From Candidatus Nomurabacteria bacterium (lineage in GTDB: Bacteria; Patescibacteriota; Patescibacteriia; HK-STAS-PATE-3): DNA of 64,000 nt. The stretch covers positions 128,001 to 192,000 of the forward strand of contig CP060223.1 of NCBI GenBank assembly GCA_023898465.1, written 5' to 3'. Of this stretch, positions 2,908 to 63,090 are shown piece by piece; positions within the stretch are counted from its first letter, which is position 1, and each line of letters opens with the position of its first letter. Under the pieces are notes generated by a model, which was not told the origin of the DNA, ran no database searches, and saw only the letters and a program-made list of their open reading frames with translations. The translations under genes were made by a program, and so were the position numbers.

Positions 2908-3975
2908 ATGCGCCAAGTACTACTTCTCCTCACTTTGATTTTATTATGTACAGGAGGATTGTATCTAGCGAATACTGCGCAAGCCCAGGAAAAGCCCGAG
3001 CTGTTGTTTTTTTACGGCCAAGGTTGTCCGCACTGCGCTGTAGTTGAGCAATATATTGAGGATGAAAATCTTGACGAGCGTTTTCGTATTATAGCGAAAG
3101 AGGTGTATGGAGACCCGGAAAATGCTCGCGACCTTACCCAGCAGTTTCAAGTTTTTCACGTGCCAGAGTCAAAGCAAGGAGTTCCCTTTATGGTGCTTGG
3201 GGCTAAATATTATGTTGGGGACGTGTATATTATTGAGGCAATAGAAAACTATGCGGATTCGGAAATTATTCATACCGAAGCGCCGAATGTTGCTGAAGAG
3301 CAAGGAGACGATCAGCTTCATTTTTTTCCGGTAGTTGGCGCCGCCTTGGTTGATGCTATCAATCCATGCGCTTTTGCTGTTCTGATTATTCTTATGGCTA
3401 CAGTGATTGCCTCGCAAGACAGGCGACGAGCCTTGCTGGCTGGCTTAAGTTTTTCTTTCGCTATATTCCTTTCATATTTGGCAATGGGCTTTGGTCTGTA
3501 TTCAGCAATTGCCGCAGCCAGTGCGACGACTTGGGTCACAAAGCTGGCCGCCGGGATGGCAATCTTGCTCGGGTTATTCAATCTCAAAGATGCGCTTTGG
3601 TATGGAAAAGGTGTGTTGATGGAAGTGCCAATGTCATGGCGACCTCGGATGAAAAAATTAATTCGCTCAGTCACGCATCCGCTGAGCGCCTTTGGAGCAG
3701 GCATTTTGGTAAGCTTATTTCTCTTACCCTGCACCTCTGGTCCCTACATTGTTATTATTGGTATGTTGAGCTCTACGGAATCAATAAACGCGGCAGTCCT
3801 TTGGTTGATACTCTACAATGTTATTTTTATCTTACCGATGTTGGGATTAACCTTAGCAGTATATTTCGGATTACAACCGAGTCGGCTTGAAGAAATACGG
3901 CAAAGTCGCCTGCGCCTACTTCATGCCATTGCCGGAATCATTTTACTAAGCTTAGGTTTGTATTTGTTGTTGTAG
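2908..3975 (+). CDS. thiol:disulfide interchange membrane protein (DsbD/CcdA-like) with N-terminal thioredoxin-like domain
   Basis: 355 aa. A signal/TM segment is followed by the CxxC motif GQGCPHCAV (thioredoxin-like). A multi-TM domain follows with the CcdA/DsbD-type conserved cysteines (INPCAF ... LPCTSGP). Confidence 0.7.
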   Translation: MRQVLLLLTLILLCTGGLYLANTAQAQEKPELLFFYGQGCPHCAVVEQYIEDENLDERFRIIAKEVYGDPENARDLTQQFQVFHVPESKQGVPFMVLGAKYYVGDVYIIEAIENYADSEIIHTEAPNVAEEQGDDQLHFFPVVGAALVDAINPCAFAVLIILMATVIASQDRRRALLAGLSFSFAIFLSYLAMGFGLYSAIAAASATTWVTKLAAGMAILLGLFNLKDALWYGKGVLMEVPMSWRPRMKKLIRSVTHPLSAFGAGILVSLFLLPCTSGPYIVIIGMLSSTESINAAVLWLILYNVIFILPMLGLTLAVYFGLQPSRLEEIRQSRLRLLHAIAGIILLSLGLYLLL

Positions 3976-4023
3976 ATAAACCAAAACCGACCTGAGCGGC
4001 CGGCTTTAGTTTTGACGCGAGAC

Positions 4024-4393: not shown

Positions 4394-5086
4394 ATGAGCT
4401 ACTATGCTGAGCAAAAAAAGGCTTTTGAAAGGGTAGAAAATGCTGTAAAAAAAGGAAAGGCAGAAGGATCGGTAGTTGACCCGGTACAAGACTATGTTCA
4501 GGATAAGCGCTTATCGCTTACGAGCTTGAGTTTTTTGCCTCCGGCAGTGCAGCAAAAAATCTATCATACACTCATTATTCCGCTTCAGGTGGTAGACTCG
4601 CAGCAGGCGTATTTTGAAGCACGTAGTCTCCATGTCACGGTGCAAAATATTCGGACAGTCGCTGATCCGCCTCTGTATACTTCAGCTGACATAGAAAAAG
4701 CACGCGAGATATTTCATAACATAGTTCCTAAATACCCATTGCTAAAATGTCGACTTGAAGGTTTAAATATCTTTCCTGCAAGCGTTGCGATCCGTGCATT
4801 CGTGAGCGAGGAGTTTCGGGATCTGGTGCTTGAGCTGCGCGAAGCTCTACGACGTAATGGTGTGCCAGATAATAAAGTGTATGCTTCTGGAAATGTTATT
4901 TTTGGTAATGTTACTTTTGTTCGTTTTACGACTACTCCTAACAAGGATTTTTTTGCCAAAGTCGAGGAGTTAAAAGAGTGTTCATTTGGCGAAGTGCATT
5001 TAGAAAAAGTTTCCCTCATGGAGGTCAATGCGCTGTGTCATCCGAGCAGTATGCGGGTCATTGATACTTATTCTTTCCAGAAATAA
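4394..5086 (+). CDS. hypothetical protein, possibly 2H phosphoesterase (LigT/ThpR)-like
   Basis: 230 aa ORF with ATG start. It contains one H-x-T-x motif (SLHVTVQN). A possible degenerate second motif is NVTF, with Asn in place of His. The family assignment is tentative. Confidence 0.45.
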   Translation: MSYYAEQKKAFERVENAVKKGKAEGSVVDPVQDYVQDKRLSLTSLSFLPPAVQQKIYHTLIIPLQVVDSQQAYFEARSLHVTVQNIRTVADPPLYTSADIEKAREIFHNIVPKYPLLKCRLEGLNIFPASVAIRAFVSEEFRDLVLELREALRRNGVPDNKVYASGNVIFGNVTFVRFTTTPNKDFFAKVEELKECSFGEVHLEKVSLMEVNALCHPSSMRVIDTYSFQK

Positions 5087-5090
5087 ATAC

Positions 5091-5624
5091 ATGCTATATA
5101 TCACATACTTTGTTCATGGCACCACAACTGACAATGAGCATGATCTTTGTATGGGTTGGGCGCCGGGTCAACTGTCTGAATTAGGGAAGCGGCAAGCAAA
5201 AGATCTTGGAGAGCAGGTTGACGCGTCACAGTTTGCAGTCATGTTTTGTTCTGATTTGCAACGGGCAGTTGATTCAGCTGAGCTAGGTTTTGGAGGGATG
5301 TTGAAGATAATTCAAGATCAGCGTTTGCGTGAATGCAACTATGGTGACTTAACACAGAGGTCTGAGGATCTTGTGGACTACGCCAAGCATATTGCAGAAC
5401 CATTTCCAAATGGTGAGAGCTTACATGACGTTGAGCAGCGGATGCGGGAATTTTTAGAAATGCTTAACACTGGCTATGCAGATAAACATGTGGCCCTTAT
5501 GGCCCACAAGGCACCTCAACTTGCGCTCGAAGTGCTCCTGAATGGAAAAACGTGGGAGCAAGCGATTACGGAAGACTGGCGTAAAAAGAAAGCTTGGCAA
5601 CCGGGGTGGAGCTATTTGTTTTAG
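5091..5624 (+). CDS. histidine phosphatase family protein (phosphoglycerate mutase-like)
   Basis: N-terminus MLYITYFVHGTTTDNE matches the RHG-type catalytic motif of the PGAM/histidine phosphatase superfamily. The start was moved from the 5028 ORF start to the ATG at 5091 because 5028..5086 overlaps the upstream gene. Length about 177 aa. Confidence 0.65.
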   Translation: MLYITYFVHGTTTDNEHDLCMGWAPGQLSELGKRQAKDLGEQVDASQFAVMFCSDLQRAVDSAELGFGGMLKIIQDQRLRECNYGDLTQRSEDLVDYAKHIAEPFPNGESLHDVEQRMREFLEMLNTGYADKHVALMAHKAPQLALEVLLNGKTWEQAITEDWRKKKAWQPGWSYLF

Positions 5625-5672: not shown

Positions 5673-6026
5673 ATGGAAAAAATATTTGGGGTCGACCCGA
5701 AAAGTAAGTTCACAGCAGAAGATGTTCGAGACGCTATTGTGGAGTGTTTCTATCAAGCCCATAAAGAGGTGGCTGAGAAGCAATTCCAATTTGCAGGCGA
5801 GGATTTTGGTGAAGAAGCATTGAAGAAGATGACCTCTAATTTCACTGAAGGCATAGTACGCCGCGCGTTTACAGAAACAAGTGGTGACTTTTCCCAGCCT
5901 ACTAAGGCATCTCTACAGAAGGCCATAGATTATATGAAGGAGTTTGCTATGGAATTTCGCACTAAGGAAATTATTGACGCGAATTATCAACAGATTAAAA
6001 GCTTGATAGACGGGTTGTCGGAGTAG
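5673..6026 (+). CDS. hypothetical small acidic protein (117 aa)
   Basis: A strong Shine-Dalgarno AGGAGGA lies 7 nt upstream of the ATG. The frame is clean, and it is the only long ORF in this interval. No recognisable motif. Confidence 0.6.
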   Translation: MEKIFGVDPKSKFTAEDVRDAIVECFYQAHKEVAEKQFQFAGEDFGEEALKKMTSNFTEGIVRRAFTETSGDFSQPTKASLQKAIDYMKEFAMEFRTKEIIDANYQQIKSLIDGLSE

Positions 6027-6091: not shown

Positions 6092-7075
6092 ATGCCATAT
6101 TTTTTCCGTGGACCATTTCTCATAATGATTGCGGCTATGCTGTGGGCCTTAGACGGTTTACTGCGCTCACAGCTTACTGCGTCAATTCCCTCCACCGCCA
6201 TTGTTTTTTATGAGCACCTGGTAGGCTTTGTCCTTCTTCTCCCTTTTTTCTGGAGAGCTCTACCTAAAGTAAAAACATTGCATCGAGCTGATTGGTTTCG
6301 ACTCATTTTACTTACCATAGTGAGTAGTGTGCTTGGCACTATTCTTTTTACCGAGGCATTTGCCCGGAGCGCTGTTTCTTATGACTTCATCACTCCAACC
6401 TTACTGCAAAAACTCCAACCAGTTTTTGTGGTGCTACTCTCAGCTATTCTCTTACGCGAGCGAGTGACATGGCGTTTCATTGGTTTAGCCATACTCGCTT
6501 TAGTAGGTAGCTATATGGTTACTTTTGGATCCGAATCTGTTTCGCTAAGCTGGAGCGGTAAAGAGATAGTGTTTCTCTTATCTATCGGCGCTGCCTTAGC
6601 CTGGGGATCGGGTACTATTTTGAGCAAGAAGATTTTAGAGAAGCTTTCATTTAGCGAGGCGACTTCCTTGCGTTTCTTATTAGCCATTCCTATTAGTGCT
6701 ATCGCGATGCTAACACTTAATCATGGCTATAGTCCGGTGGAAATTTCCGGGGCTTCTTGGCTCCGCTTCGTCGCTATTGGTTTGACTACTGGAGCAGCGG
6801 CGATTCTTATCTACTACCGTGGCTTGCGAATTACACCAGCGAAAGTCTCCACTTTTGCTGAGTTGATGTTTCCCGTCACAAGTATTCTCATAGCCGTGAC
6901 AGCGCTTAATCCCTTTGGCGCGCCGCAGCCCATTAGCTTTGGCCAGGGCCTAGGTATTCTTATCCTCATCGTTTCCATTTTACTTATTGGAACGAGTGAG
7001 CTACCCGCGCCTAAAGTAAAAGAGAGTGAAGCATATGAAGGAGCTACCCAGTCCGAGCCAGTATCTACAACATAA
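6092..7075 (+). CDS. EamA/DMT family transporter
   Basis: 327 aa with about 10 predicted TM helices arranged as two EamA-like halves. The C-terminal tail is hydrophilic. Confidence 0.75.
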   Translation: MPYFFRGPFLIMIAAMLWALDGLLRSQLTASIPSTAIVFYEHLVGFVLLLPFFWRALPKVKTLHRADWFRLILLTIVSSVLGTILFTEAFARSAVSYDFITPTLLQKLQPVFVVLLSAILLRERVTWRFIGLAILALVGSYMVTFGSESVSLSWSGKEIVFLLSIGAALAWGSGTILSKKILEKLSFSEATSLRFLLAIPISAIAMLTLNHGYSPVEISGASWLRFVAIGLTTGAAAILIYYRGLRITPAKVSTFAELMFPVTSILIAVTALNPFGAPQPISFGQGLGILILIVSILLIGTSELPAPKVKESEAYEGATQSEPVSTT

Positions 7076-8078
7076 ACTTGAAACCTGCGGTCAGTATACA
7101 TTGACCGAGTCTGATCACGCTCTTCTCAAAGAAAAAGGCATGGAGGAGTTTTTGTACGCAAAACTTACTTCCAAGAAATTTCGGAAGTGGAGAATAACTC
7201 AAAAAGCAGAAGACCGCATCCGTAATGCACTTTCTGTCACGGTGCCAAAGAATAAGCCACTACAGTTACGTTTTCCCTTTGGGGCATATAAACTTTGGCG
7301 CTTGCCATCAAGTCCAGAAGTGGACTGGGCTGAGTTTTTTACCTTGGCGTATTTCTCAGAGTTCCTCGCACCAATTTTAGCCGCATATCAACCGGGGGTG
7401 GAGTTGTATTTTTCTTCAGATGAGGTAATTGTCGAACCTATGAACAATGTATCTCGAGAAGAAACAGATGCATACCAAGAATCATTCAGGCGTTTGTTGG
7501 CAGAATTTAAAAAGTATTGGCCAAATAATTTCATTGTTGATATTCGACCTGTGCGCAATCTCTATAACAATGCAGAAGAAATTTTCAATGAAGCTCAGCA
7601 AATGATTCCGATAATTGAAGAAAGATATGCGGCCATGTCAAAAGAGGAAGTCGCTTCTGCTGAAAAAACCTCAGCCATGAATATTCGCTGGGATGGAGTT
7701 CAGGATTGGCAGAAGCTTACTGAGGATGAAAAGAAGGAAAAAATTCACTACGGCACAATATTACACGATGCCTATTGCGCGATTAGCAAACGACAACAAT
7801 TCATGCGTAGTGACGATACGATTTTACTTTTTGTAAATAGACAAGTTTCTGATGGTATTCCACTAGGTAGCACTAAGAATTCAATTGCGAAGTTTTGGCC
7901 GGGCTACGGAGTGTTGGAACAAAAAGAAGCAGGCTATATAGAGAGAGTGCTGACCCCGCAACAACTTACTTCATTGCAGCATGAGAAAGCTCAAATTGAA
8001 GCAATCGATTGGCTGCCAATGAAAAACTTTCACGAGATCCAAGTGTATCCTGAGCTGAATTTTACGCTTACTAAATAG
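7035..8078 (+). CDS. hypothetical protein, paralog A of tandem pair (unknown function)
   Basis: About 347 aa. The N-terminus SPSQYLQHKLETCG...GMEEFLYAKLTSKKFRKWRI and the C-terminus IEAIDWLPMKNFHEIQVYPELNF are shared with the downstream paralog. The ORF track starts at GTG 7026. The ATG at 7035 is preferred because it has a purine-rich upstream and aligns with the paralog N-terminus. Confidence 0.7.
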   Translation: MKELPSPSQYLQHKLETCGQYTLTESDHALLKEKGMEEFLYAKLTSKKFRKWRITQKAEDRIRNALSVTVPKNKPLQLRFPFGAYKLWRLPSSPEVDWAEFFTLAYFSEFLAPILAAYQPGVELYFSSDEVIVEPMNNVSREETDAYQESFRRLLAEFKKYWPNNFIVDIRPVRNLYNNAEEIFNEAQQMIPIIEERYAAMSKEEVASAEKTSAMNIRWDGVQDWQKLTEDEKKEKIHYGTILHDAYCAISKRQQFMRSDDTILLFVNRQVSDGIPLGSTKNSIAKFWPGYGVLEQKEAGYIERVLTPQQLTSLQHEKAQIEAIDWLPMKNFHEIQVYPELNFTLTK

Positions 8079-8140
8079 TTCTAGACAGGATCCATCAGAA
8101 CACTTAGTATGCACTAGGAGAACTTTCTTATTGCAGTCGT

Positions 8141-9181
8141 ATGTCACATTTTAGTCCGAGTCAGTATTTACAACATAGACTCGAAAGTTGTGGTCACTAC
8201 GAGTTGACCGCGTCAGACCATGTTCTACTCAAAGAAAAAGGCATGGAAGAGTTCTTGTACGCCAAGCTTACTTCCAAGAAATTTCGGAAGTGGAGAATTC
8301 AAGAAAGTTACCAAAAAGAGATTCGTGAACAGATTCGCTATTGTGTAGAAAAAAATATTCCAATAGAGCCAACTTGGTTTTTTGGTGGATATAAATTATG
8401 GAGCTTACCCGGCTCGCCTGAACCAAACTGGGCTGAGTTTTTTACTATCGCATATTTTCTACAATTTATTTCTCCAATCGCGGCGGCTTATTCTCCCGGT
8501 GTGACTTTCAAATTTTGGGTTGCTCATGCTTCAATTATGCTGCAGCAAAGCAATATACCCATTAAAGAGTGTATAAAATATAGAGAGGAATTTAATCGAT
8601 TGCTTTCCTTTTTTAGAAAGTACCTTCCCTCAAATATTGTTGTAGAGCTTCATGACTATTCTGAACTTTATCCAGATCAAAACGAATACGAGCAAGAATT
8701 AGAGCAATGTATCCTAAATACAGAAAGAAAATATCACGAAGAATGGACTGAGGATAGAAAAAGAATTAAGAGAACAACTTCAGAATTAAATATACAGTGG
8801 TCTGGAGCAGAGGATTGGACCAAGTTGGGTGAAAGTGAAAGAGAAGAAAAGATTTTTCGTGGACCATTGGTTCATGATGGGTATTGTGCTTTATCAAGAG
8901 TGAACGAAGCATTACGCGGGTCAGGTAAACTTGACTTGAGTGCTACGCCTTTGCCTTCAGGATCAATTCCAGTTGGCACAAGTGCAAGTTCCGTGACTAA
9001 ATTCTGGACCGGAGTTGGTGTGCTTGAAAAACATGATAGTCGCTATGTGGAGCGAATTTTATCCCCTCAGCAATGGAATGCTGTTCAGGGTCTATCTGTT
9101 CAAATTGAAGCAATCGATTGGCTGCCAATGAAAAACTTTCACGAGATCCAAGTGTATCCTGAGCTGAATTTTTCTCGCTAG
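8141..9181 (+). CDS. hypothetical protein, paralog B of tandem pair (unknown function)
   Basis: 346 aa. It is homologous along its whole length to 7035..8078, at roughly 45% aa identity by eye. Two tracts (about 32 nt and about 69 nt) are 100% nucleotide-identical to the paralog. Confidence 0.7.
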   Translation: MSHFSPSQYLQHRLESCGHYELTASDHVLLKEKGMEEFLYAKLTSKKFRKWRIQESYQKEIREQIRYCVEKNIPIEPTWFFGGYKLWSLPGSPEPNWAEFFTIAYFLQFISPIAAAYSPGVTFKFWVAHASIMLQQSNIPIKECIKYREEFNRLLSFFRKYLPSNIVVELHDYSELYPDQNEYEQELEQCILNTERKYHEEWTEDRKRIKRTTSELNIQWSGAEDWTKLGESEREEKIFRGPLVHDGYCALSRVNEALRGSGKLDLSATPLPSGSIPVGTSASSVTKFWTGVGVLEKHDSRYVERILSPQQWNAVQGLSVQIEAIDWLPMKNFHEIQVYPELNFSR

Positions 9182-9237: not shown

Positions 9238-9966
9238 ATGGCTGTACACAATATTAAGGGGCATAGCATGTTTTCTCGTAATATCTTGATCGCCCTTTCT
9301 CAACCTGAGGATGGGGACATGCGGGCGCAAGCGTCCGATGGAAACGGCCTAGAACGCCGTAGGATTTTTTTGGAGTCCGAGGGCTTTAGGTCTGATCAGG
9401 CTGTCTACGCTGGACTTGATCATGGCACGAATGTGATTGCAGTCCGCGGGACAGACGCTGGTCAAACTGTTCCAGACGTGGACGGTTTAGTAACGAACGA
9501 AGCAGGTCTAGTCCTGGGTCTGACCGTAGCTGATTGTTTGCCAGTTTATTTGTATGACCCAAGGACCGAGGCGATTGGACTCCTCCATGCCGGGTGGCGC
9601 GGCTTGGAGCAAGGTGTGCTGAGGCAGGGGATTGAACGAATGCAGCAAAGCTTCCGAGTGCACCCAGAGGATGTATTCGCAGCAATTGGTCCGAGTATCC
9701 GATCCTGCCACTATCAAGTAGGCGAGGAAGTGGCGAGACGATTTCGGGCACGCTATTCACTAGCTTTGGAACAGCGGGGACTCGAAACAAGACTGGATCT
9801 TACCAGGGTTGCTCGTATGCAGCTCGGTGAGGTAGGAGTCATTGCGCGTCACATCGAGGTTCATCCTCATTGCACCTACTGTCGGCCGGGTTTGTACTTT
9901 TCTCGTCGGAGGCAGGGCACAGGCTTTGGTCTGATGCTTGCTACAATCGCACGCTTACCAAGTTAG
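9238..9966 (+). CDS. pgeF: peptidoglycan editing factor PgeF / YfiH (Cu-oxidase_4, DUF152) family protein
   Basis: Motifs HGTNV...TNEAGLVLGLTVADCLPVYLYD...GLLHAGWRG are characteristic of YfiH/PgeF. The true start may be the internal Met at 9268 (MFSRNI...). Confidence 0.85.
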   Translation: MAVHNIKGHSMFSRNILIALSQPEDGDMRAQASDGNGLERRRIFLESEGFRSDQAVYAGLDHGTNVIAVRGTDAGQTVPDVDGLVTNEAGLVLGLTVADCLPVYLYDPRTEAIGLLHAGWRGLEQGVLRQGIERMQQSFRVHPEDVFAAIGPSIRSCHYQVGEEVARRFRARYSLALEQRGLETRLDLTRVARMQLGEVGVIARHIEVHPHCTYCRPGLYFSRRRQGTGFGLMLATIARLPS

Positions 9967-9980
9967 TCCACCTCAGGTAA

Positions 9981-10005
9981 AAGCAATCCTTCGGGATTGC
10001 TTTTC
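9981..10005 (+). terminator. Rho-independent terminator after pgeF
   Basis: Hairpin AGCAATCC-TTCG-GGATTGCT followed by TTTT. Confidence 0.6.
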
Positions 10006-10188
10006 GCTAATCCTAGCAGAATTTTTTTGGCGTCTTTTCCATTTTGCTCTTTTATTTTTGCACTCTCTTGACAAAGTTTCGTACCGTAGAGGGGCTGTGG
10101 ATGATTTTACCCCTATAAACATTGGCGGAAATTAACTTTTCGGTTATACTATCTCAAGAACTTTCGATAATTAATTTAAGGAGATGCT

Positions 10189-10470
10189 ATGGCAAAAATG
10201 ACCAAATCTCAACTCCTCACCATGTTGGCTGAAAAGAGCAACATGTCAAAGAAGGATGTTGGCGAGTTTCTCGACATGCTGGCCCAGATGGCCTATGACG
10301 AGACCAAGCGAAATGGCGAGTTTACCCTCCCAGGTCTTGGTAAGCTGGTGAAGAAGCACCGTGCTGCTCGTTCCGGTCGTAACCCTGCTACTGGCGAAAC
10401 GATCCAGATCCCGGCCAAGACCGTGGTGAAGTTCCGTGTTGCCAAGGCAGCCAAAGAAGCAATTCTGTAA
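10189..10470 (+). CDS. hup: DNA-binding protein HU
   Basis: 93 aa. Typical HU/IHF fold signature (GEFTLPGLGKL...RNPATGETIQIPAKTVVKFRVAKAAKE). AGGAG ribosome-binding site upstream. Confidence 0.9.
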   Translation: MAKMTKSQLLTMLAEKSNMSKKDVGEFLDMLAQMAYDETKRNGEFTLPGLGKLVKKHRAARSGRNPATGETIQIPAKTVVKFRVAKAAKEAIL

Positions 10471-10659: not shown

Positions 10660-12894
10660 ATGCCAAATAAATCATTAAAAAAATCTATGCCAAGTACAAA
10701 AGGATCACGCACGGAGGAGGTTGGAGTAAAGACTCGCACTCGAGTTGATACCGCATTTGGTTTGTTGTTGATAGGTGGAGCACTTAGCGTTGGTATGTTT
10801 GCCTTTTTCTTCTTTAGCCAGGGATTCTCAAAGGAAGCTACTTCATTTGGCAATAAGGTGAACGAGCAACATCGCGCATCAAGCCTTTGGCCACATGTGA
10901 GAACGGCGATTCACTTCAATCATCGGCCTGTAAATAGCACAACAGAGGCAAATTTCTTAGCCACGCACTTTGACTATTATGTTGGTCAAGTCGGTACTTA
11001 TGCAAATTATTTACGTCAGGTTAATCCAAACATCAATCTGGCCTTTATGCGCAGCGTACGAGCTATTAACAGCGTGCCGGAATTAGAAACTTGGCTGGCA
11101 GATCATCCTGAATATGATGAGGAAGAATTTTTCTTGCACTACACCCAAGATACCTTGGTTGGACCTAGTGGAAATCAGATTCTCGTAAAGGGTTGGCGAG
11201 AGGAGTGCTCACCAAATTGTGAGCCAGCCGCAACGGCAACTACACGTGAAGAGAGTCGAGTGCCAGATTCTGGTGAGTTTGCCCGGGGTTGGTATGTGCC
11301 AAATCCAAACTATGAAGGTCTGCCTGTTTTTCAAGCTGACATGCTTGCTTTGCGACAAAGTTGGTACGGAATTGATGGCACTTTCTTTGATTGGTGTGCT
11401 GGAGCATCTGTACAAAGCGAGAATCACCTGAGTCGCACTGCTGAGTATGCCGACATAGATGATTCAGATAATTTTCGCCATCCTTTTGTAGGTGATTCAA
11501 TCGCTATCATGGATAAGGTTTTGGATCGCTATAACGAGGAATATGCCGATCAGTATGGATCAATTGATTGGATTCCTTGTAACACGGTAGCTGGATATTG
11601 GACCTATGATCACGGCAACATTGAAAACAATGACTACCGAGACGCTTTACTTGCCAGCGAGTCAAACAGCGAGTTTTTCTGGGAAGTGTGGATGCAATAT
11701 AATGATACTTATCCACTTACCTCAGGGCCAAGTCGAGATGTGCATTTGAAGTATCTCAAAGATACCATTGCGCTATCAAACCAGAAACAAACTGGACTCG
11801 AATTGGTTGCCCTGGGTGATCAGGCTAGCGATCGAACAAACACCTTCTTACTCGGCTTAGCGTATCTCGTCCAAACACCTGATCGCTCGGTAGTGTCATA
11901 TCGACTTGATGTGCCAGCTCATAATTCAGATGAGCATCTACAAAATTGGGCCTGGTTACCACAGTTAGCTTACGACATTGGCCAACCTGCTCAGAACCCA
12001 GCTGGTATTCGAGATGTCTTTGGCAATCAAAACACCAGTGAATTCTATGAATGGGCGACCGGAGCTGATCCGGGAAATTCAGGACATACCTATTCGATTT
12101 ATGCTCGACAATACGAGAATGCATTGGTGCTTACCAAAATGCGTCAGGCTCGTGAGGATGCTTGGGGAGATGCAACCGCGACCACGCATGAGCTTGATCA
12201 GCCATATCGAGTCTTACGGGCAGATGGAAGTGTAGGAGATGAAGTGAGTCAAGTTACTTTGCGTGATAACGAAGCAGTTATCCTCATTCGTACAGAAGCT
12301 CCATTAATCCAAAATGTGCAGACCGACCGTGTCTGGAGCACCCGAGCTTTAATTAGCGCTAAGGTGCAGGACGCACAATCAGTTGTTGTGCAGTACGGTA
12401 AGACCACCCAGTATGGCAATGAACTGGTTTTGAAGCGCTCACGGGTTGATGGTACTTACTCCGTCAATATTAATCGCCTCACTCAAGGCACGCTCTATCA
12501 CTATCGAATAAAGGCAACGGGTCAAAACGGCGCGACAGTGTATTCAAACGATTACAACTTCCGCACGCTGCAGAATTCCTTATCTTTGAAAGATGTTATT
12601 CATGTTTTACGAGATGATGGGACCATCGATGTCACCGTGGAATCGCCAAATGCGGATTTAGTCCAGCTGACGTATAACTCAAAGAAAACACCAAACGTTA
12701 CTGTTACCCTTGAGGAAGCGAGTGAGGGCGTCTTCACCACAACACTTTCTGGATTATTGCCTAATGAGCAATATACCTACAAGGTGCTCACACAACAGGG
12801 AAAAACAAAAGCGTATGCCTCGGGCAGTTTTACCCCTCGGAAGATAGATGAAGATATGTTCCCCAGCATCACACGCACGACAGTAGAAGAATAA
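10660..12894 (+). CDS. secreted/anchored hypothetical protein with C-terminal fibronectin type III-like repeats
   Basis: 744 aa. The N-terminal hydrophobic segment is LLLIGGALSVGMFAFFFF. The central domain is unassigned and could be glycosidase-like (speculative). The C-terminus has beta-sandwich Fn3-like repeats (GTLYHYRIKATGQNGATVYSNDYNFRT; NEQYTYKVLTQQGKT). Confidence 0.75.
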   Translation: MPNKSLKKSMPSTKGSRTEEVGVKTRTRVDTAFGLLLIGGALSVGMFAFFFFSQGFSKEATSFGNKVNEQHRASSLWPHVRTAIHFNHRPVNSTTEANFLATHFDYYVGQVGTYANYLRQVNPNINLAFMRSVRAINSVPELETWLADHPEYDEEEFFLHYTQDTLVGPSGNQILVKGWREECSPNCEPAATATTREESRVPDSGEFARGWYVPNPNYEGLPVFQADMLALRQSWYGIDGTFFDWCAGASVQSENHLSRTAEYADIDDSDNFRHPFVGDSIAIMDKVLDRYNEEYADQYGSIDWIPCNTVAGYWTYDHGNIENNDYRDALLASESNSEFFWEVWMQYNDTYPLTSGPSRDVHLKYLKDTIALSNQKQTGLELVALGDQASDRTNTFLLGLAYLVQTPDRSVVSYRLDVPAHNSDEHLQNWAWLPQLAYDIGQPAQNPAGIRDVFGNQNTSEFYEWATGADPGNSGHTYSIYARQYENALVLTKMRQAREDAWGDATATTHELDQPYRVLRADGSVGDEVSQVTLRDNEAVILIRTEAPLIQNVQTDRVWSTRALISAKVQDAQSVVVQYGKTTQYGNELVLKRSRVDGTYSVNINRLTQGTLYHYRIKATGQNGATVYSNDYNFRTLQNSLSLKDVIHVLRDDGTIDVTVESPNADLVQLTYNSKKTPNVTVTLEEASEGVFTTTLSGLLPNEQYTYKVLTQQGKTKAYASGSFTPRKIDEDMFPSITRTTVEE

Positions 12895-62043: not shown

Positions 62044-62120
62044 TGGTGCGCCCGGCAGGGATCGAACCTACGACCTCAGGCTCCGCAAGCCTGCGCTCTA
62101 TCCAACTGAGCTACGGGCGC
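62044..62120 (-). tRNA. tRNA-Arg (anticodon reads GCG)
   Basis: Reverse complement: GCGCCCGTAGCTCAGTTGGATAGAGCGCAGGCTTGCGGAGCCTGAGGTCGTAGGTTCGATCCCTGCCGGGCGCACCA. It folds as a cloverleaf: 7 bp acceptor stem, D-loop with A20, anticodon stem CAGGC/GCCTG with loop TTGCGGA, T-arm GTAGG-TTCGATC-CCTGC, and an encoded CCA. It is close to E. coli tRNA-Arg(ACG) apart from G34. Confidence 0.85.
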
Positions 62121-62783: not shown

Positions 62784-62838
62784 AGGTGTGTTGATTAATA
62801 TTGATGCGTAATGCTGTGCGATTCGTCCTGCGCTAGGG

Positions 62839-62925
62839 CGGAAGGGGTGGGATTCGAACCCACGGAACCCTTTCAGGCCCAACGGTTTTCAAGACCGTCC
62901 CTTTCGACCACTCAGGCACCCTTCC
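62839..62925 (-). tRNA. tRNA-Ser (anticodon TGA)
   Basis: Reverse complement: GGAAGGGTGCCTGAGTGGTCGAAAGGGACGGTCTTGAAAACCGTTGGGCCTGAAAGGGTTCCGTGGGTTCGAATCCCACCCCTTCCG. Anticodon stem ACGGT/ACCGT with loop CTTGAAA. Long type-II variable arm. T-arm GTGGG-TTCGAAT-CCCAC. CCA is not encoded (CCC follows). Confidence 0.85.
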
Positions 62926-63090
62926 ACCTCAGTGCAGGATCTCAATCGCGACCATTCCACAGGTTCAATTCCGTGCGTCAGGTCTTAAAAAATGCACGGC
63001 ATGAGCACTGGAATTGTACGTAAAACACCAGTTTTTTTCAAGGGGCGAGAGTGATATACTTACTATATTCACGCATTAATATCAAGAGCT

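Follow-up and report, generated by a model that had tools for sequence, protein, structure and literature searches.

Probable recurrent gene conversion at the ends of two long-diverged paralogs with a predicted PvcA/IsnA fold in a Candidatus Nomurabacteria genome

Genes A and B lie in tandem in a 64,000-nucleotide (nt) stretch of the Candidatus Nomurabacteria bacterium contig CP060223.1 (positions 128,001 to 192,000, forward strand; GenBank assembly GCA_023898465.1), called the window below. We consider it probable (about 0.7) that they are long-diverged isoforms of an enzyme family of the Candidate Phyla Radiation (CPR) with the fold of PvcA and IsnA, and that their termini have been mixed by recurrent short-tract gene conversion. 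What would be new is partial concerted evolution in a branch of the isonitrile synthase fold that belongs to CPR, has not been studied and has two stable core types. The pair is composed as follows (positions are those of the window).

7035 to 8078, forward strand: gene A, 347 amino acids (aa) from ATG; A-type member of the CPR PvcA/IsnA-fold family, motif F-SSDEVIVEPMNN
8141 to 9181, forward strand: gene B, 346 aa; B-type member, motif FWVAHASIMLQQSN
8079 to 8140, forward strand: A-B spacer, 62 nt, without similarity to the sequence upstream of A
7050 to 7195, forward strand: N-terminal homogenised tract of A, 146 nt, 85% identical to 8153 to 8298, ending in an exact 32-nt tract
8153 to 8298, forward strand: N-terminal homogenised tract of B, partner of 7050 to 7195
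7196 to 7990, forward strand: diverged core of A, A-type Rossmann-like core plus helical insertion, 50% nt and 33 to 51% aa identity to the B core
8299 to 9099, forward strand: diverged core of B, B-type, identity 0.48 to 0.59 to B-types versus 0.33 to 0.51 to A
7991 to 8063, forward strand: C-terminal tract of A, probably converted, 73 nt, 100% identical to 9100 to 9172, 22/22 identical codons
9100 to 9172, forward strand: C-terminal tract of B, probably converted, partner of 7991 to 8063

The original prediction, made from the letters alone, had taken the two proteins to be homologous end to end at roughly 45% identity, and BLASTP gives 172/341 (50%, E 6e-124). The identical tract of about 32 nt that it named is exact in the codon alignment (7164 to 7195 and 8267 to 8298), and its C-terminal tract of about 69 nt measures 73 nt. 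The repeats stop at the ends of the coding sequences, and the spacer is not included. Codon choice was compared at residues that are identical in A and B and have degenerate codons: the same codon is used at 47/100 such residues in the core, at 22/22 in the C-terminal tract (P~6e-8) and at 9/10 in the 32-nt tract, an excess that protein conservation does not explain. In 2000 permutations of the aligned sites, the longest identical run was at most 26 nt. A two-breakpoint scan puts boundaries at ~7195 and ~7991, with nucleotide identities of 50% in the core and 85% in the ends (chi2 93). Differences number 22/146 in the N-terminal tract and 0/73 in the C-terminal tract (Fisher p=1.6e-4), and this unequal divergence points to separate events instead of one duplication. 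At the protein level, A and B are 0.80 identical over residues 1 to 55 and 0.92 over residues 321 to 345, and neither region exceeds 0.65 to any other member. Since the C-terminus is the least conserved region across the family (mean identity 0.35), the identity of A and B there is not ordinary purifying selection.

Relationships differ by region: the ends group by genome and the core by subfamily, both in the window and in two further cases described below. A core-only tree (residues 60 to 315) holds the 17 B-types as monophyletic and places A with proteins P0136 and P0005 in one clade, so that, judged by sequence, A-type and B-type cores appear to be two old subfamilies. The A-type clade is small, and its genes are paired with B-types or occupy a B-type locus. 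Most aligned members carry F-[SA]SDDxIIERMDN, and 17 members, gene B included, carry FW[AT]AH[PA]S[IV]MxxQSN. Columns fixed differently between A-types and B-types are P81F, a Trp inserted after F126, S128A, D129H, M136Q, T144C and A246G, and the acidic residues 130, 134 and 137 are lost in B. The B-type alignment has a mean column identity of 66% and more than 60 invariant columns, among them the family-wide FGGYK, WAE, N138, H245 and KFW-G-G. Across the wider family the 127 to 137 segment takes still other forms; the invariant elements of that family are a KxFRK motif, FGGYK, DWAE, N138 and KFW-G-G.

The mosaic recurs in an independent genome. Locus L001 (= L012, JAHIZJ010000109), on a contig of a Patescibacteria metagenome-assembled genome (MAG), holds the B-type P0134 followed in tandem by the A-type P0136, an order of B-A against A-B in the window. 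This pair has a 91-nt identical run and 49/52 identical codons over codons 271 to 330; its ends are 88% and its core 52% identical, and synonymous differences occur in the final 13 codons, the ~60 codons before them being nearly identical. In the third case, L015/L016 with an A-core (P0005) and L002 with a B-core (P0108) are metagenome contigs of one orthologous locus. The C39 peptidase downstream is 80% identical between L015 and L002, the gene ends are 77% and the cores 52% identical, and nucleotide homology is present in the first ~50 and last ~70 codons of the gene. Breakpoints are similar in all three cases, the 5' one at nt 93 to 156 and the 3' one at nt 804 to 954. Synonymous-site identity, regional incongruence and this recurrence together bear out the mosaic that had been predicted, with recent gene conversion, also predicted, as its most likely cause.

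The same prediction had gone on to suggest a diversifying family of surface, immunity or specificity determinants, and the data give this part no support. A globular PvcA/IsnA fold is predicted and the N-termini are hydrophilic; PADLOC returned only a 17.5-bit partial match for A and none for B; the window holds two copies, and 15 of the 17 loci examined hold just one; and both cores have conserved ortholog groups. The further paralogs that it looked to are absent from the 64-kb window, where tblastn gave no third copy (next best match, E 0.5).

Which of the two genes is the resident copy is indicated by locus L004 (GCA_043800725.1), which is syntenic with the window in the order EamA (69% aa identity by tblastn), single B-type gene, YfiH (44%), HU (77%) and YdjM (49%). 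Its EamA gene (3057 to 4016) overlaps the B-type gene by 4 nt, and that gene is 56% identical to B and 41% to A. Because L004 has this synteny with one B-type gene, B is the ortholog of the resident gene and A the extra copy, which either goes back to an ancestral pair and has disappeared from L004, or arrived later.

Sequence searches found ~240 family clusters at 90% identity. Named relatives come from Patescibacteria/CPR (Saccharibacteria, Kerfeld-, Gottesman-, Levy-, Dojka- and Parcubacteria) or from unclassified 'bacterium' MAGs, and a profile search of 1.84 billion representatives returned 517 relatives, every one of them metagenomic and 225 reaching E<=1e-30. One contig with a typical B-type gene, L011 (CAZQLY010000001.1, 198,913 bp), is labelled 'uncultured Gammaproteobacteria bacterium'; the gene has HAD and PurD-like neighbours, as do the CPR loci L001 and L005, and the label may be wrong.

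Gene A matches PF05141 (DIT1_PvcA) with 29.6 bits against a cut-off of 26.4, as a partial match (profile positions 33 to 164 of 273), and 40/52 family members match this profile at E<=0.01 (best 4e-7). The NCBIfam equivalog NF045653, 'L-tyrosine isonitrile synthase', is far from reached (A, 11.9 bits of 600 needed; B, no hit). Searched against the Protein Data Bank (PDB), the family profile finds PIsnA (9DH4) at E=0.003. Against a small alignment of canonical isonitrile synthases, hhalign gives E=7e-5 and a probability of 63% over 100 columns, a comparison that covers mainly the N-terminal half, the canonical set being truncated proteins from a search seeded with a PIsnA fragment. It pairs K86, E100, Y118-P120-G121 and S128-D129 with FPxK, DMAE, YPPG and SD(GH). 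The parts of the isonitrile synthase motifs that are kept are the Lys of FPxK (as FGGYK), the Glu of DMAE (as DWAE) and YxPG; the Ser-Asp of SDGH is kept in A-types and its Gly-His is not, and B-types have A-H-P-S in place of the A-type S-D-D-x. The C-terminal motifs RLSIHPQ, K-x-G-I and W-x-TPWH (as in P0308/P0312) could not be aligned by hhalign or HMMER, the canonical sequences being fragmentary.

The structural link is stronger. AlphaFold2 models (mean predicted local distance difference test score, pLDDT, 93 for A and 87 for B) match PIsnA/PvcA in Foldseek at E~1e-9, and A and B are predicted to be globular alpha/beta proteins with the PvcA/IsnA fold. A weak sequence link, a strong structural link and an equivalog score far below its threshold together suggest a distant, distinct branch of the PvcA/IsnA/Dit1 superfamily whose members are not demonstrably isonitrile synthases. 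The NCBI annotation calls A an 'L-tyrosine/L-tryptophan isonitrile synthase family protein' and B (H6760_00600) 'hypothetical'; the first name probably over-states, and the second under-states, what is known. The original prediction had seen no catalytic motif and thought the family possibly uncharacterised, which is partly right: the literature searched yielded no experimental work on the family and no paper linking isonitrile or isocyanide synthases with CPR, but homology to isonitrile synthases is detectable and A already bears the name given above. A Saccharibacteria transposon-sequencing supplement had no usable annotation match. Cyclodipeptide synthases and class Ic aminoacyl-tRNA synthetases (TyrRS/TrpRS) were also considered; A and B are not members of either, the similarity being far weaker than to PvcA.

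As to mechanism, the direct tandem orientation of A and B would let homologous recombination copy short tracts repeatedly from one gene to the other. Such conversions would survive only in the first ~50 and last ~25 to 75 codons. The termini of both isoforms presumably do the same job, and conversions into the core would erase the difference between A and B and be removed by selection.

Several observations weigh against gene conversion between isoforms of a PvcA/IsnA-fold enzyme. In sequence the family is tied to isonitrile synthases only marginally, and no Pfam family, PF05141 included, matches B. The segment that separates A from B (127 to 137) is variable in the wider family too and so may not be catalytic. 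Gene neighbourhood is not conserved overall, and the EamA genes of loci L018 and L019 are not orthologs of the EamA gene in the window, which makes the EamA association convergent or a matter of chance. P0115, P0136 and P0005, used for comparison, did not decide the direction of conversion. Finally, replacement of a core cassette would give a similar mosaic. The termini would then be native, and an A- or B-core, from foreign or paralogous DNA, would have been swapped in by homologous recombination anchored in the termini, the tandem pair having arisen by duplication and then a swap. Such replacement would fit the alternative cores that L015 and L002 hold between homologous ends at one orthologous locus, the like breakpoints in all three cases, the opposite gene orders of the window and L001, and the G+C content of A and B (0.40 to 0.42, neighbours 0.46 to 0.53). 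We nevertheless regard it as rather unlikely: the end tracts in the window have diverged unequally, the patchwork at the end of the L001 genes, with its synonymous differences in the last 13 codons, fits repeated short conversions better, and L015/L002 is equally explained by collapse of an ancestral A-B pair through unequal recombination.

We give little credence to the idea that B is a non-catalytic pseudoenzyme that heterodimerises with A, the identical termini forming a shared dimer interface. The replacement of S128 and D129 (the SD of SDGH) by A and H, the loss of the acidic residues and the homogenised ends of two independent tandem pairs would agree with it, but B-types are strongly conserved in the alignment described above, and the 127 to 137 segment varies in the wider family anyway. 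Moreover, 9 of the 11 B-type loci examined, the syntenic L004 included, have no adjacent A-type gene, which argues against an obligate A-B complex, as far as adjacent genes can speak to it without settling it. Least credible of all are explanations of the identical tracts by a nucleotide-level element (RNA structure or regulatory site), by codon bias or by an artefact of MAG assembly. An 8-bp hairpin is possible in the 32-nt tract (-7.9 kcal/mol, z=-1.9), and chimeric MAG assemblies are possible too; yet no Rfam family matches the 73-nt tract, which folds less well than its own shuffles (z=+2.2), and the weak family-wide conservation of the C-terminus makes a conserved embedded element unlikely. 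Recurrence of the pattern, with different sequences, in an independent MAG argues against both an element and an assembly artefact, and the 73-nt repeat is shorter than typical assembly k-mers and lies inside a 1.08-Mb contig in which both open reading frames (ORFs) are intact. An embedded RNA or regulatory element was also rejected as a candidate on its own: the 73-nt tract is unstructured, and a promoter and terminator scan showed nothing distinctive.

Two genes flank the pair directly.

6092 to 7075, forward strand: EamA-family transporter gene (Pfam EamA, 1.2e-32), overlapping the start of A by 41 nt
9238 to 9966, forward strand: Cu-oxidase_4 (YfiH/PgeF-like) gene (Pfam PF02578, 8.8e-58), 56 nt 3' of B, syntenic in L004

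The ORF listing gives an alternative GTG start for A at 7026. The EamA gene is a probable operon partner of A, and an HU gene also lies downstream of B with the YfiH-like gene. G+C content is 0.415 in A and 0.395 in B, 0.46 to 0.53 in the flanking genes (6092 to 7075 and 9238 to 10470) and 0.457 in the whole window; at third codon positions it is 0.40 in A and 0.33 in B. The low values could reflect family-specific composition or foreign origin.

No neighbour gene is universal across the 17 loci inspected. A look-up of the surroundings of P0110 returned nothing. A transporter gene immediately precedes the enzyme gene in the window and L004 (EamA, overlapping it), L019 (TrmB-EamA), L015 (ATP-binding cassette exporter) and L010 (Nramp). 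HAD hydrolase genes lie upstream in L001 and L011, and other recurring neighbours are VanW-RuvB (L003, L008, L009, L014) and a PurD-like ATP-grasp gene (L005, L011). As clues to function these genes are leads only. EamA genes with a TrmB-type regulator occur by or near very divergent family members at L018:1631-7038 and L019:6189-9044. The unrelated loci L001 and L019 both have a very large alpha-2-macroglobulin-like gene within 5 to 6 kb of the enzyme gene (L001:1-2107, 1773 aa, with a PT-HINT domain; L019:1-2856, 1789 aa). In L002, 2.4 kb downstream of the B-type gene, a heliorhodopsin gene (PF18761, 9442 to 10224) adjoins a ferric-reductase-like gene, and other genes of that contig (a type IV pilus operon) look CPR-like.

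Further out in the window, a His_Phos_1 (histidine phosphatase) gene lies at 5028 to 5624, 1.4 kb upstream of A; homologs with 50 to 52% identity lie ~7 kb upstream of B-types in L008 (2 to 478, reverse strand) and L014 (632 to 1156, reverse strand), perhaps a faint trace of wider synteny. Upstream of the EamA gene lie two ORFs, at 4394 to 5086 (230 aa) and 5673 to 6026 (117 aa), that match no Pfam family significantly. A 744-aa ORF at 10660 to 12894 (forward strand) is probably a surface protein, with an N-terminal hydrophobic segment, a large central part without Pfam match and C-terminal beta-sandwich repeats like fn3, CBM_48 and purple-acid-phosphatase-N domains. The only RNA genes detected in the window are tRNA-Arg(GCG) at 62044 to 62120 and tRNA-Ser(TGA) at 62836 to 62926, both on the reverse strand, and its single short tandem repeat is at 4884 to 4919.

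By analogy with IsnA/PvcA, and with low confidence, the A/B enzymes might condense an amine with a carbonyl or ketose-phosphate in a cofactor-free reaction, in which the amine would probably be an amino acid. Type-specific positions cluster in the segments aligned to FPxK, SDGH and the HDA region; because the fixed differences fall in segments aligned to isonitrile synthase motifs, a difference in substrate or product between A and B would be expected. The product may, again with low confidence, be exported by the adjacent EamA transporter. A bolder proposal, which we find quite doubtful, is that this branch, working without the usual dioxygenase, makes an exported amino-acid-derived molecule and that recurrent recombination maintains a metabolic switch with two cassettes. 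The product would be of isonitrile, N-formyl or imine type. The A and B cores would be interchangeable, each set between N- and C-terminal modules particular to the lineage; docking to a shared, lineage-specific partner (each other as a heterodimer, or the adjacent transporter) would be what keeps these modules the same within one genome.

The genomes of CPR/Patescibacteria are very small, and little secondary or specialised metabolism is known from them. The isonitrile synthase fold, two stable variants of a putative active site and an upstream transporter at several loci make this unstudied, metagenome-only family a concrete candidate for a small-molecule product in CPR episymbionts. The locus also offers what is probably a clean natural case of partial gene conversion, with ends homogenised and diverged cores protected, and recurrence with similar boundaries marks which parts of the protein are common to the isoforms and which distinguish them.

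Among known systems, IsnA/PvcA (PF05141; PDB 3E59, 9DH4/9DHM) are cofactor-independent and convert L-Tyr or L-Trp with ribulose-5-phosphate to an isonitrile. A and B are only 11 to 16% identical to them, and their family has an extra conserved basic N-terminal motif, KLTSKKFRKW. Genes for IsnA/PvcA are usually, though not strictly, paired with a gene for an IsnB/PvcB dioxygenase; an IsnB/PvcB-type Fe(II)/2-oxoglutarate dioxygenase was not seen among the neighbours called in L001 to L005 and L015 to L020 or the adjacent genes in the window and L008 to L014. Yeast Dit1, of the same Pfam family, makes an N-formyl-tyrosine precursor and not an isonitrile (PMC7345447). Dit1 thus shows that proteins of this fold can act on an amino acid by related chemistry that yields no isonitrile, and divergence of that sort would be expected of A and B. 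Unlike them, Dit1 is eukaryotic, serves in sporulation and works with the P450 Dit2; the A/B locus has no such partner. For the mosaic itself the comparison is with tufA/tufB, duplicated bacterial genes that evolve in concert by RecA-dependent gene conversion. As there, paralogs within a genome are identical over tracts that include synonymous sites while orthologs diverge; in A and B, however, conversion would be partial, confined to the termini and between presumably functionally diverged subfamilies that are about 36 to 50% identical in the core, and the mosaic is seen again in separate lineages, each time with similar boundaries.

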